A stretch of 64,000 nt of DNA from Escherichia coli (GTDB lineage Bacteria > Pseudomonadota > Gammaproteobacteria > Enterobacterales > Enterobacteriaceae). Shown piece after piece: positions 9,101 to 15,100 of this stretch; position 1 is the first letter of the stretch; each line of letters begins with the position of its first letter. The DNA is taken from the NCBI RefSeq assembly GCF_003334305.1, contig NZ_QOWS01000025.1. One strand, written 5' to 3'. The position numbers were made by a program.

Positions 9101-12100
9101 GGTCGATATACGCCTGATTGCGGTAATAGTTATTGACGTCAGAAACGACGGCTTTACCAAACATATTGGTATAAACAGCAGCACCGTTACCTTCTACCGG
9201 AACATCGGCAACGCCATCGGCATCAATCAACAAGCGTGTCCCGCCCATATTCTGGGTACGGTGAAGTGCGCCACCGTGGGCAGTAAGCGTTGCGCCGCCC
9301 TGTAACGACAAGCCCGCAGAGGTGTATTGCCCTTCATGGTAGTTCGCACTGAGGTCAACCTGCGCCAGCGAACCATCATGGCTGTAATAGCCGTCAACGC
9401 TGGTGTGTTTGTCACTGGTGCCGACGTTCAACTGATAGTGAGTCGCGTCATCGACACGGCTGAAATAACCGACCTGACTGCTGTCCGTCCCACTGCCATA
9501 GTTACCGTTATAGCTAACGGTACTGTTGTCGCCCCACGGCATACTGAGCGAAATGTACATGCCTTTGTCGGCCTGGTTGTCATACTCGTAACGGTAGCCA
9601 GTCATCGAGATGCTGACATTACGAATACTGCCCATATTGAAATAGTGCGAGAGCATGATGTTGTAGTTTGTCTGCTCCTCGCGATCCCAGTAGGTATGGC
9701 GGGTATAGTTGAGATAAACCGAAACACCCGCATCGCGGAAGTTCTGGTTATAAGTGGCGGTGTACATCTCTTTGTCGTTGCCCGTGCGTACCATTCCGCT
9801 GTCACTGGCATCCAGATACTCGCTCATGGTCATAAAGTTCTCTTCCGAGAAGCGATATCCAGCAAAAGTAACGCGGCTGTTGAGCTGGTCAAAGTCTTTG
9901 GAATAACTCACACGGAAGGAGTTACCGTCCAGCGAACCTTTGCCATAAGCGGTGTCTTTATCCAGTTTGGTGTGCGAGTGAGTAACATCAAACGCGACCG
10001 CGCCGAATGTAGACAAATCGCGACCGACGCCAAGCGCCGCAGACTGATAGTTTTCATCTCCCAGTGCGCCGCCATATAACGACCAGCCGTTAGCGATCCC
10101 CCAGGAAGCTTCAGCACCAGAAAAAAATTCACCCTCGACATGGTGTCCCCACTCTTGCGGACGGCCCATCATGATCTTATAGCGAACCTGACCTGGGCGA
10201 GTGAGGTATGGCATCGAGGCGGTGCTGATGTCATATTCCTGCACCTGGCCGTTCTGTTCTTCAATGCGAATATGCAACGTACCGGAGACAGAATCACCAA
10301 GATCCTGAATACGAAACGGTCCAGCCGGAACCTGCGTTTCGTAAATCACACGCCCCATCTGGCTGACGGTCACTTTTGCTGTGGTGTGTGCCACGCCGGA
10401 AATGTCTGGCGCGTAGCCGCGCAGATTGGGAGGCAACATTTGATCGTCAGTACTGACACTGCCACCAACATAGTTAAAACCATCAAAAATATCGGATCTG
10501 AGGTAATCCTCGCCCAGCGCCAGTTTGGCTTTTAATGATGGTAACGCCCGCCAGGCATAGTAGCGACTCCACTCCCATTTTTTTTGAGTTTCATCGCCGC
10601 TGAATTCATCGTCATCATTACTGCGAGTATGTTGATAGTTAGTCTGCCAGTCAGCACGCATACGCCACGGCCCCAGGTTAACCCCGACCGTCCCGTTGCC
10701 GCTGATCTCGTTACTATCATCACCGCCATTTTCTTCGTGCCGGGTTTGTGCGTTGATGCTGTAGTCCGCGACGATCCCGGAGATGCCGTCATCCCAACGT
10801 GAAGGCGGATCCCAGTCGGGATAAGTATATTCGAGGTAAGCCTGTGGCAGTGAAATGACTAATGCGGACTGGCTTAAATCAGCCTTAATTTCCATGCCTT
10901 CCAGTTGACCGGATTTCAGGCATTTAGCATCGTGGCTCCATTGCAGATTTTTCGCCACGTCTTCTTTTAAACCAAACTGCGCTACCAGTTCCGGTGTCAG
11001 ACAAGCATAGCTTTTGCTCGCGTCATCTTCACCAGCATACCAGTAAATATCGTACTCTTCCGCCAATGGCTGTTTATTTAGTTGAACCTGTAAATTGTAT
11101 TTTCCGGGCTCAACATATCCCTGGCTGGAAAAACGCTTCAGATCAATTTTTGTGTCGCCTTTTAATTCCAGAAAACGGGAATCAAACTGAATGTCGTCTT
11201 CAGCCCAGACACTGCTATAACTCCCTGACATTGCCAGCGCAATGCACCACGGAAGAATCCGTAATCGAAAAAGAGAATGGTCAGGCATACACGTTTCTAT
11301 CCGTTTTTATTCTTGTTCGGTCAAAATCCATTTAAATCCCCCATAGCAGTGTCGCTATGGGGGTATGCCTTACAGGTAAGTAATCTGGAAGGTGGTATTT
11401 GCTTCGAAATTACCCAGATCTGGCGCATCAGCTGCGCCGACCAGCCAGGCTTTAAAGTTCAGTGTCTGCTTCGCTTTGCCTTTATTGGTAGAAGTGTCTT
11501 TCACTATTTTCTGGTCAATACCCATGCCGCTTTTGTAAGAGGTACCCAGAGAGTCACCGATCGCTAGGCTAACATTGTTAAATGCCGCACCGGTATCGGT
11601 ATTGAAAATGGTGTAATAATTGCCGCTATTTGCAGAAGAAACGGTACCAGTAAAGGTAGTGGTCATTGTTTCCTGAGTATCAAATACGCAATCTTGCAGA
11701 CGAATCTGGAAACTTTTCGGCGTGGTGGTGCCGTTATTTTTCAGTTTTTCGGCACCGATATCACCCATATCAACTTCCAGTTTGTGATCGTCCGGAACGA
11801 TAGAACACACTGAGTCTTCAATGGTGCCGTAAAAACGTGCAGTACCGTTGTTACCCGCAGCGATTGTTGCCGTAGAGGTGAAAACGCCCATCACCATTGC
11901 CGCAGCAATAGCTGTTTTAACAAACTTACTCATTATTTGTCCTTAAACTATAAATAATTAAAAATATAAACATTACAATACATTGATTCAGTCAATACCC
12001 AATGTTTATACCCAGCCATTGAATACGGCATGCGATCCAAAAAGAACAGGTCGTAGAAAATTGTATTCTTTGGTGTGGGGCCGCATAGTGATGTTTTCAC

Positions 12101-15100
12101 CCCCCTGATGCAATTTAATTTTACTAAAGAGTAAATGTAGATTTAATTAATATATTGACAGAAGAAAGGTTATCTTAAGGACATCCTTAAAAAATACGGA
12201 ATAAGTATTTAGAAAAAATAGAAAGTATATCAATAATGAATATCAACAGCTTAAAAAACAAACAATGAACATATAATGCGATTGGCATTTATCCACTTTT
12301 GACAATATAATATATAAACACTATAGCCAGAATTTAATCAAGTTTCAATTACATCCTGCCTGATTATTCAACTCTATTATCTGTATTAATAAATGACAAT
12401 GAGTGTCAAACAGACATTATTCATTTCAACATGTAACTTTGGGCAAAATCAAGATACGCGCAGAAGAATAATTTCCGAATGAATGTAGAAAGTGTTTTAT
12501 TTATAGATAAGGAGAGTCTTCGATAGTAGTGAGGTTGACAGATATCCGCTGCCTGATGAGCAATTATGCCCAATGAATCTACCTCATTGGGCATAATTTG
12601 GAACACATCAGATAGCTTTTGCCATCTTCAGATTACACGGGCTCATCTGCCAGTTGAATGTACCGTTTCCGCTTTCATCAAGCGTTACGCTGGCAATGGC
12701 CGAGGTGGTAAACATAGGCGGCGTTTCGCCCGGACATAACTCGGCAACCAGATACCCGACTAACGGTAAGTGAGAGATCACCAGTACCGAAGCAACACCT
12801 TCATTGGTCAACGCCTGCAAATAGGCACTGACCAGACCAACATCGCCGCAGGGCGTTAACTCCGGCAGAACTTCTGCACTGGAAGGCAGGTTCAGACAAT
12901 CCCCCACTTCTTCCAGTGTTTGCTCGGCTCGCAGGAACGGGCTCACCAGAACGCGTTCGATTTCCACTTTTTGACCTTTCAGCCAGTTCGCCATCAGGCG
13001 AGATTCGTCACAACCATTAGTGGTCAGAGGACGAACGGAATCACTGGCGGCATCGAGGGCTGCGTCGCCGTGACGCATGATAAAAACTTGCATATTGCAC
13101 CGCTTTTGTTAACCAGATTCGCCCGTTTTCTTTCATCTGAAACCAGAGAAAGAAAACGGTGGCCGGCATTGTGCCTTATCCATTCACCGAATGAAACGCT
13201 GTTTTTTACCTCAATGGCGTAAGTATAGTCAATATGCGTTTACATTTTGACCAACACTCCGCCATTCAGCGCGGATTCATATAGCTTTGACCTTCTTATT
13301 GCAGGTCAGTTGCAGTTGTTTTCCAAAAACTTTCCCCACGCGCGCCCATCTCGACCAAACGCTCGCAAGGGGTAAAACGGGAACCATACTGCGTGGCAAG
13401 TCGTTGCATTATTGCAACCACTTCGCCCGCGCCGAGAGAATCGATATAGCGGAACGGTCCACCGAGAAATGGCGGAAAACCAATGCCAAATACCGCACCA
13501 ATATCCCCGTCACGCACGCTACGGATAACCTGCTCATCAACACAACGTACTGCTTCATTCAGCATCAACATCACACACCGTTCAGCAACCTGCGGTGCGG
13601 AGAGTCGCCCCTGCCCTTGTGCGCCAATGAGCGGGTAAATGGCGGGATCGACCTGTTTTTTGCTTTTACGCCCTTTCTGACCATAAAGATAGAAACCCCG
13701 ACCATTTTTTCTGCCTTTGCGATCGTCGTTCAAAATTGAAGAAACAACATTTGCAGGCGCGCTAAAACGTTCTCCATAAGCGGCTTCCAGTACAGGAATA
13801 ATTTTAGTCCCGGTGTCGATTCCTACCTCATCCAAAAGTTGGATTGGACCTACCGGAAAACCAAATTTCACTAGCGCGGCATCAATGTGCTCTACCCGTT
13901 CACCTTCGGTCAGCATGCGGATAGCTTCATTAATGTAAGGCGCTAAGATGCGATTGACGTAAAACCCGGCTTTGTCACGCACGACAATGGGCGTTTTGCC
14001 CTGTTTTTTCGCCAGTTTTACCGTAGTGGCGATGGTTTGCGCCGATGTACCCGCATGAGGAATAATCTCTACCAGCGGCATTTTTTCCACCGGACTGAAG
14101 AAATGCAGGCCGATAACTTGCTCAGGTCGCGTGGCGTGAGCGGCGATATCACCAATCGGCAAAGATGACGTATTCGAAGCAAAGATGGTATGAGCGGCGC
14201 AATTTTGCTCCACTTCCGCCACCATCTGTTGTTTTAATTCGAGATTTTCAAACACCGCTTCAATAATCAGATCGCGATGGGCAAAGCCGCGATAGTCCGT
14301 CGTTCCGGAGATTAATGCCAGCTGTTTGTCACGTTCGCTGGCTTTGAGATGACGACGGCGAACTTTGCCCTCCAGCTGATCCCAACTGTACTTCAGCGCA
14401 TGATTTATGCCCTGCGGGTTGATATCTTTAATTCTGACCGGAAGCCCCGCTTTACAAGCAGTGACATAAGCAATACCGCCGCCCATCAAGCCACCACCTA
14501 AAATTCCCACGCTGTTTAATGGCGCAGGCGGTGCATCACTACCGGGATCTTTCTTCACTTCCGTACTGGCAAAAAAGATACTACGCAAAGCTTGCGATTG
14601 TGGCGTCATCGCCAGTTCGCCAAACGCCCGAGCTTCGGCGTCATAACCGCTGCTGGTGCCCTGCGCTAATCCCGTTTCAACAACCTCCAGGATGCGTTCT
14701 GTCGCCGGATAATTGCCTTGAGTTTTGTGTTCTGTTTTCTTGCCGACCATTTTGAACAGCAGCGCACGACCTAACGGCCCCGCCAGAATACGCTCGCGTA
14801 CAGGTAGAGGGCGGGAAGATGGGCGATCCTTCTTCGCCAGCTCAACAGCGGCTTCCAGCAAAATGGAGTGCGGAACAACGTCATCCACCAGCCCCAGCTT
14901 TAATGCCTGTTTCGCCCGAAGTTGTTTTCCGGTGAGAATCATCTCTAATGCTGTACTGACGCCTATCAGACGCGGTAAACGCTGGGTGCCGCCTGAACCG
15001 GGTAACAATCCAAGTTGTACTTCAGGCAAACCGAGCACCGTTTTAGGATCGTCAGTACAAACGCGACCGTGGCACGCCAGCGCCAGCTCCAGCCCACCGC

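Follow-up and report, generated by a model that had tools for sequence, protein, structure and literature searches.

The DNA directly upstream of yfcV (positions 11934-12420) in a 64 kb window of Escherichia coli is very probably the control region of the yfc chaperone-usher operon, an AT-rich and promoter-dense stretch that is silenced by H-NS; the silencing mechanism in this strain is what we infer. Anatomy, base composition, promoter-site density, the allele comparison and the absence of switch features come from our own analysis, while the binding of H-NS and of RNA polymerase is taken from the K-12 literature and would apply here by analogy. The identity of the region, its binding of both proteins and its status as a promoter island are already published for K-12, and we are dealing with a real and ordinary control region of little discovery value. 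What we add is modest: a search of 5,426 genomes for DNA-based phase variation at yfc was negative.

The window, by which we mean the whole 64 kb stretch that was analysed, has an overall GC content of 48.7%. The AT-rich stretch covers 487 bp of the 674-bp intergenic spacer between yfcV and sixA; the non-coding DNA extends past 12420 to 12607, and its final ~50 nt contain a hairpin at the 3' end of sixA. The RefSeq annotation gives smrB, the yfc genes, sixA and fadJ as the surroundings. The yfc operon is annotated as intact here, with yfcV, yfcU, yfcS and four more fimbrial genes, of which the last encodes a YfcO-family adhesin (RefSeq annotation, strain 503025). The elements of the locus are the following:

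11370-11933, minus strand: yfcV, first gene of the yfc chaperone-usher operon (ORF list and RefSeq annotation of the 100%-identical strain 503025)
11940-11944, minus strand: Shine-Dalgarno sequence AAGGA, 6 nt ahead of the yfcV ATG (from the sequence)
11934-12107, minus strand: promoter-proximal part of the spacer, GC 35.6%
12108-12440, no strand assigned: AT-rich core, GC 24.6%, with all eight sigma70-like sites of the spacer, four per strand
12562-12598, minus strand: sixA 3' hairpin, perfect 15-bp stem with a 7-nt loop, beginning 10 nt past the sixA stop codon
12608-13093, minus strand: sixA, the co-directional upstream neighbour of yfcV

The Shine-Dalgarno block TTTAAGGACAAATAATG is invariant across all six aligned E. 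coli alleles, and in the proximal spacer the six-allele alignment shows short blocks, approximately CACACCAAAGAATA and TTCAATGGCTG, that are kept among otherwise diverged alleles. This proximal part would be leader RNA if the yfcV promoter assigned by SELEX in K-12 is used. The core is likely the platform on which H-NS nucleates and spreads, judged by the K-12 binding data.

With a GC content of 28.5% (AT 71.5%) against 48.7% for the window, the stretch is the minimum among all 487-bp stretches of the 64 kb, and yfcV starts directly downstream, just as the original prediction had described. A tract this far under the genome GC across several hundred bp is what one expects of an H-NS-silenced promoter. 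The long homopolymeric A/T tracts that were also claimed are not there: the longest runs are A6, which occurs three times, and C6, which occurs once. Runs of A or T of at least 5 nt number five in 11934-12420, compared with 4.0 ± 1.9 in shuffled sequences; there is no excess of homopolymer runs, and the longest does not go beyond what composition predicts. The sequence is a mixture of A and T, in which TpA steps are 2.4-fold enriched (0.119 per nt vs 0.05 in the window).

Such a mixed A/T composition would create dense sigma70-like -35/-10 pairs on both strands. A simple hexamer scan (not PlatProm) found eight promoter-like sites in the 487 bp, four per strand; no other 500 bp of the 64 kb is as dense, and the average is 1.36 per kb. 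Composition-matched shuffles yield 4.1 ± 2.3 sites. The observed density is only ~1.7 sd above them, and the island property is therefore mostly due to the AT content. Among these sites are:

12320-12348, minus strand: TTGAAA-17-TATAGT, sense, 10/12 matches, candidate yfcV promoter (hexamer scan)
12371-12399, minus strand: TTGTCA-17-TAGAGT, second sense promoter-like site, confined to alleles that lack 9 bp here
12204-12233 and 12149-12178, minus strand: two weak sense promoter-like sites
12282-12311, plus strand: TTGGCA-18-TATAAT, top sigma70 match in the spacer (11/12), facing away from yfcV and antisense to sixA

The -10 element of the candidate yfcV promoter (12320-12325) ends 386 nt ahead of the yfcV ATG, which implies a leader of ~380 nt. 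In K-12, genomic SELEX with the RpoD holoenzyme assigned the same TTGAAA-17-TATAGT as a 'constitutive' yfcV promoter (PMC3946193 Table 2), and hexamers and spacing are unchanged here relative to the K-12 allele. Among the many sigma70-like pairs, this site ~390 nt upstream of the ATG is thus the one with a K-12 assignment to yfcV. Besides the sigma70 (RpoD) peak, the K-12 spacer also gave a peak with the sigmaS (RpoS) holoenzyme in vitro by SELEX. The TTGGCA and TATAAT hexamers of the plus-strand site are seen by eye in the alignment with the K-12 allele too; this site probably belongs to the spurious promoters that H-NS keeps silent.

Promoter islands, as defined by the Ozoline group, are stretches of at least 300 bp in which predicted transcription start sites are exceptionally dense on both strands, and the hexamer scan finds such a density in the AT-rich stretch. 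The K-12 spacer between yfcV(-) and sixA(-) is promoter island 2453647_489, one of the 78 published (Shavkunov 2009; Panyukov and Ozoline 2013, PMC3661553 Table 1). It is the orthologous locus with the same two genes, 489 bp long compared with 487 bp here, and it shares with our stretch the TTGAAA-17-TATAGT site and a surplus of promoter-like sequences on either strand. It maps to approximately 11909-12393 of the window, with the coordinate offset between the genome versions being inferred. Islands of this class are also expected to bind RNA polymerase while giving little full-length RNA. Transcription from promoter islands is in general low in K-12, and recent work doubts that H-NS or motif excess is the general cause of this silence (PMC11661796).

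The evidence for H-NS occupancy comes from the Panyukov table and the Shimada tables, all of it for K-12. In the part of the former that concerns this island, the spacer is listed as bound in vivo in the ChIP sets of Kahramanoglou (MG1655) and Oshima (W3110); for the Grainger ChIP set the island is not flagged there, its code being 'K' and not 'A' (PMC3661553 Table 1). Genomic SELEX marked the K-12 spacer as an H-NS site in vitro (PMC3946193). The yfc operon is moreover called cryptic, and many cryptic chaperone-usher fimbriae in commensals are reported as H-NS-repressed, in the account given by PMC3559732, which cites Korea 2010. The idea of an H-NS-silenced fimbrial promoter thus has its support from published K-12 ChIP and SELEX data. 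Two sequence features gave no signal: the Lang H-NS motif TCGATAAATT is not enriched (three sites with two mismatches each, and not among the top windows of the 64 kb), and AA/TT helical phasing in the spacer does not rise above chance. Since both are at background, we do not count them as support for silencing; neither a high-affinity motif nor curvature is strictly required for silencing by H-NS.

The same A/T composition that produces the promoter-like sites would offer H-NS a preferred binding platform. H-NS may then coat the ~0.5-kb tract and either exclude RNA polymerase or trap it in unproductive complexes. Such a coating would block productive transcription, and the yfc operon would be cryptic under laboratory conditions for that reason. 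Expression would require that H-NS is countered, either by AT-binding regulators or by transcription that enters from upstream, and would need no DNA rearrangement. In other strains, yfcV rises when Rho is inhibited by bicyclomycin, BolA overproduction up-regulates it, and in CFT073 overproduction of TosR, a regulator of the PapB family, raises it by log2 5.2.

We compared the spacer with other E. coli alleles. The K-12 version is ~92% identical to that of the window, from which it differs by three single-base indels, one of them at the edge of an A run, and by one 9-bp indel: the 9 bp ATTTTCTCC are present at ~12376 in K-12 and many other strains and are missing here (span lengths 1110 vs 1101 nt). 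Outside this pair, identity among the six alleles is 58-69%, yet all have a GC content of 26-32%, and all six carry a sense promoter-like site 347-386 nt ahead of the ATG. That low GC and the position of this upstream site are kept despite strong sequence divergence is of modest added value. It also bears on the reading that the high AT content is left over passively from horizontal acquisition or from mutational bias, with one ordinary promoter as its sole regulatory role. The high polymorphism of the yfc locus between lineages fits this reading, as does a promoter-site excess that composition mostly explains. However, the spacers of the four diverged alleles differ by 31-42% and retain the low GC in every case, whereas the neighbouring sixA is 96-99.6% identical and divergence sets in directly after its stop codon; in addition, the K-12 version is selected by both RNA polymerase and H-NS. 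We consider a passive remnant improbable.

The original prediction further held that the promoter is possibly phase-variable, and this part is not supported: inverted repeats are at chance level, no flipped copy ranked at the top among 5,426 complete genomes, there is one GATC, no tract exceeds 6 nt, and no recombinase gene is adjacent. Inversion of the fimS type, in which a recombinase flips a 200-400 bp segment between short inverted repeats and so switches yfc on or off, is a mechanism available to E. coli fimbrial operons, and the spacer does contain short perfect inverted repeats, such as pairs of 10 nt (11948/12497) and 9 nt (11938/12175). Earlier, no clear pair had been found by eye, and the computation agrees: among perfect inverted repeats flanking 100-620 bp none exceeds 10 nt, a length that 33-37% of dinucleotide shuffles also reach. 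We then used the spacer flipped between its native 600-nt flanks as a query in 5,426 complete E. coli genomes. For the window allele the flanks alone were matched (64-65% coverage), none of the 5,426 genomes reached at least 80%, and no flipped copy ranked at the top. With the B2/CFT073 allele the outcome was alike, with no flipped copy ranking at the top among the same number of genomes and no place covering at least 80% of the query, whereas the identical test with fimS as positive control found flipped copies with 100% coverage in one piece. The RefSeq annotation shows no recombinase gene beside the yfc operon either. An invertible element is thus rejected on repeat statistics and on fimS-validated searches with two alleles; it is largely refuted and has next to no probability left. 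The likeness to fimS lies elsewhere: fimS, too, is AT-rich and H-NS-bound, precedes the major-subunit gene of its fimbrial operon and figures among the promoter islands (fimE/fimA), but it differs by its 9-bp inverted repeats around 314 bp, the adjacent FimB/FimE recombinases and the occurrence of both orientations in assemblies.

An epigenetic switch of the pap type, with Lrp and Dam competing at two GATC sites ~100 bp apart, aided by PapI/PapB-like helpers, could be suspected from the membership of yfc in the pi usher clade, like pap (PMC3032704), and from the response of yfcV to the PapB homologue TosR in CFT073. The 674-bp spacer contains only a single GATC (12034-12037), on which ground we rejected such a Dam switch, and the other alleles have 0 to 2, with none in the B2 alleles. 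Upstream lies the co-directional sixA and no divergent gene of the papI/papB type, and the spacer holds no conserved small ORF; we regard this reading as barely conceivable. Equally far-fetched is slipped-strand mispairing at a homopolymer or short repeat that would alter promoter spacing. It could draw on the three 1-nt indels, including that at the edge of the A run, and the 9-bp indel between the K-12 and window alleles, but the span lengths mark these as fixed lineage differences and not as variation within a lineage. The longest run is 6 nt here, which led us to reject such tracts, and 7 nt in the other alleles. Runs of 6-7 nt are shorter than those known to slip often enough to be useful, and the direct repeats include no extended array.

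An unannotated gene for a small RNA or a small protein within the spacer is, finally, very improbable, although the spacer's length of 674 bp and the conserved blocks in the proximal 175 nt would allow for one. A structured RNA was rejected on an empty Rfam scan (no match at E up to 1). The absence of an ORF, as predicted, holds in that none above 50 aa lies inside 11934-12420; the longest in the entire spacer has 61 aa, and the three longest are without an NCBIfam match. No reading frame stands out as common to the E. coli alleles, and RefSeq annotates nothing in the MG1655 spacer.

Control regions of this kind occur at other fimbrial operons of E. coli. The H-NS-silenced, cryptic fimbrial promoters of yad, yeh, sfm, ybg, yra and elf/ycb are AT-rich, lie upstream of the major-subunit gene and are poorly expressed in the laboratory, as is yfc, and the promoter-island table with H-NS marks includes yadN/folK, folD/sfmA, ybgD/gltA, yehD/yehE and agaI/yraH (PMC3661553). 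There is no difference in kind between these and yfc, the sole distinction being the unusual polymorphism of the yfc locus between phylogroups.

At the far end of the spacer, the sixA 3' hairpin has a folding energy of -31.2 kcal/mol (z -5.5). In the window allele a U run after the hairpin is absent and the terminator prediction called none, whereas in O157 and YDC107 this position is occupied by hairpins of other sequences, both with a T run behind them. With a hairpin that lacks the U run, as in the window and K-12 alleles, sixA transcripts may enter the AT-rich tract. One may speculate that this read-through is normally stopped by Rho and that, when Rho fails, it strips off H-NS and fires the yfc promoter, giving heterogeneous, bistable expression of the fimbriae without a DNA switch; we consider this unlikely. 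If true, the ease with which a given E. coli lineage makes Yfc fimbriae would be set by the terminators and promoter alleles particular to it. A parallel is the relief of H-NS silencing by Rho inhibition in Salmonella SPI-1 (PMC9335307), where a silenced AT-rich promoter region controls a gene that goes up with Rho inhibited, like yfcV; at yfc a co-directional gene, sixA, lies upstream, with a hairpin lacking a U run. The likeness is a resemblance only, and sixA read-through and bistability at yfc would follow from it by analogy. In K-12 yfcU is a pseudogene, whereas the present strain has an intact yfc operon and is therefore better suited than K-12 to tests of what relieves silencing.

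We found that the AT-rich stretch upstream of yfcV, the first gene of the yfc chaperone-usher fimbrial operon, is a real feature and one that is already known. At 28.5% GC, against 48.7% for the window, this stretch (11934-12420) is the lowest of all 487-bp segments within the 64 kb. The window is from E. coli: a 1.1-kb query around the stretch matched 5,426/5,426 complete E. coli genomes in a collection search, with 100% identity in strain 503025, whose annotation provides the gene coordinates listed here. Downstream of yfcV, the other genes of the yfc operon are annotated as intact, including the usher gene yfcU, which in K-12 is a pseudogene.

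Features of the yfcV-sixA region (window positions)
11370-11933, minus strand: yfcV
11934-12607: yfcV-sixA spacer, 674 bp, of which the AT-rich stretch takes up 487 bp
11960-12090, minus strand: short conserved blocks, approximately CACACCAAAGAATA, approximately TTCAATGGCTG and TTATA near -45, in alleles otherwise ~60% identical
12108-12440: AT-rich core, 24.6% GC
12282-12311, plus strand: top promoter-like match (11/12), facing the wrong way relative to yfcV
12348-12320, minus strand (that of yfcV): TTGAAA-17-TATAGT, 386 nt before the yfcV ATG
~12376: position of a missing 9 bp, ATTTTCTCC (plus strand), carried by K-12 and many close relatives
12562-12598: strong sixA 3' hairpin at the far spacer end, just past the sixA stop (-31.2 kcal/mol, z -5.5)
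12608-13093, minus strand: sixA

The original prediction also described long homopolymeric A/T tracts, and this is wrong. The longest run is 6 nt, and the five A/T runs of at least 5 nt compare with 4.0 ± 1.9 in shuffles; the sequence is rather mixed A/T with frequent TpA steps. The absence of an ORF holds: the longest in the spacer has 61 aa, the three longest gave no match in a family search, no reading frame stands out as common to the other alleles, and an Rfam search of the spacer found no match.

Our own scan gave 8 promoter-like sites in the stretch, 4 per strand, the densest cluster of the window (mean 1.36 per kb). Because composition-matched shuffles give 4.1 ± 2.3, most of this excess is an effect of AT content. 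The K-12 spacer, ~92% identical to that of the window, belongs to a published set of 78 promoter islands, as entry 2453647_489 (yfcV(-)/sixA(-)), and carries the H-NS code 'K', which denotes the ChIP data of Kahramanoglou and of Oshima (PMC3661553, Table 1). Assuming an offset of 1975-1977 nt between two MG1655 genome versions, this island falls at ~11909-12393, nearly the interval predicted at the outset. Genomic SELEX with RpoD holoenzyme places a 'constitutive' yfcV promoter, TTGAAA-17-TATAGT, in the K-12 spacer and marks the same spacer as an H-NS site (PMC3946193); an RpoS holoenzyme peak likewise lies there (PMC5493296). This promoter is also present in the window allele. Additionally, the lack of ATTTTCTCC brings TTGTCA and TAGAGT to 17-nt spacing, giving an extra sense promoter-like site that K-12 does not have.

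For the allele comparison, the spacer was aligned from six E. coli backgrounds. Identity is 96-99.6% in sixA and 58-69% in the spacer outside the window/K-12 pair, while yfcV is 69-84% identical between the window and the other loci (L002-L006). Thus, yfcV and the spacer are far more diverged than the adjoining sixA, and the divergence begins directly after the sixA stop codon. Only 3,063/5,426 genomes carry the window allele or a K-12-like one at megablast level. Nevertheless, spacer GC is 26-32% in every allele (21-26% in a 300-bp core), and all six have a promoter-like site in the sense direction 347-386 nt ahead of the ATG. The ribosome-binding block is common to them all, as are a few short stretches within the 175 nt nearest to yfcV. 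Since these properties are kept despite the divergence, we conclude that composition and layout are conserved and the sequence is not. The conserved blocks at 11960-12090 may be binding sites of regulators or elements of the leader RNA. At the other end, the sixA 3' hairpin lacks a U run in the window allele and K-12, whereas in both O157 and YDC107 a hairpin of another sequence occupies that position, with a T run behind it, so that sixA termination may differ between lineages. In some strains a different pi-type cluster sits at this position (PMC3032704).

The suggested phase variation is unsupported. An invertible element would need flanking inverted repeats, and indeed none stands out, as already noted by eye: the longest perfect repeat flanking 100-620 bp has 10 nt, matched by 33-37% of shuffles. 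We also queried the 5,426 genomes with the spacer reverse-complemented between its native 600-nt flanks, a construction for which flipped genomes would outrank normal ones. The top matches covered the flanks only (64-65% coverage) and no genome reached 80%; the B2/CFT073 allele gave the same picture. The same construction for fimS, the invertible switch of type 1 fimbriae, retrieved genomes that matched the query at 100% coverage as a single piece, roughly 230 flipped ones as estimated from places-per-record counts. Assemblies give the majority orientation, and a very rare flip could escape this test. The annotated neighbourhood of the operon contains no recombinase gene. A Dam/Lrp switch is rejected on the single GATC in the spacer and the lack of papI/papB-like genes, and slippage on the lack of any tract above 6 nt or of an extended array among the direct repeats.

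The proposed H-NS silencing, in turn, agrees with the published K-12 data. The AT-rich tract offers many RNA polymerase binding sites and is at the same time the DNA type preferred by H-NS, whose coating would keep the operon cryptic. Judging from data on other E. coli strains, such coating of the promoter tract most likely keeps yfc silent. The published expression data are consistent with this model. PMC3559732, citing Korea 2010, describes yfc as cryptic yet functional and reports H-NS repression for many of the cryptic chaperone-usher fimbriae found in commensal strains. Expression of yfcV rises upon Rho inhibition by bicyclomycin (PMC10980228), BolA overproduction (PMC4337573) and overproduction of the PapB-family regulator TosR in CFT073 (log2 5.2; PMC5956150). 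A weak CsiR ChIP peak (PMC5217608) maps to the AT-rich core. Neither the Lang H-NS motif (own scan) nor A-tract phasing, both sometimes cited for H-NS sites, is enriched in the stretch.

Elsewhere in the window, a second AT-rich patch, at 20061-20590, lies at the 3' end of yfdF and in the spacer between yfdF and mlaA; judged by gene neighbourhood, it corresponds to 2461920_303 (yfdF/mlaA), another of the K-12 promoter islands already published. GC is also low in patches at 19111-19750 (fadL-yfdF), 32531-32850 (emrK-evgA), 43681-44100 (yfdX-ypdI) and 47621-47930 (alaC-ypdA). Finally, a sucrose-utilisation cluster (cscA, kinase, transporter and LacI-family regulator) occupies ~22600-29800 downstream of a tRNA-Arg gene and lies next to dsdX, which is truncated, and dsdA, which is intact.
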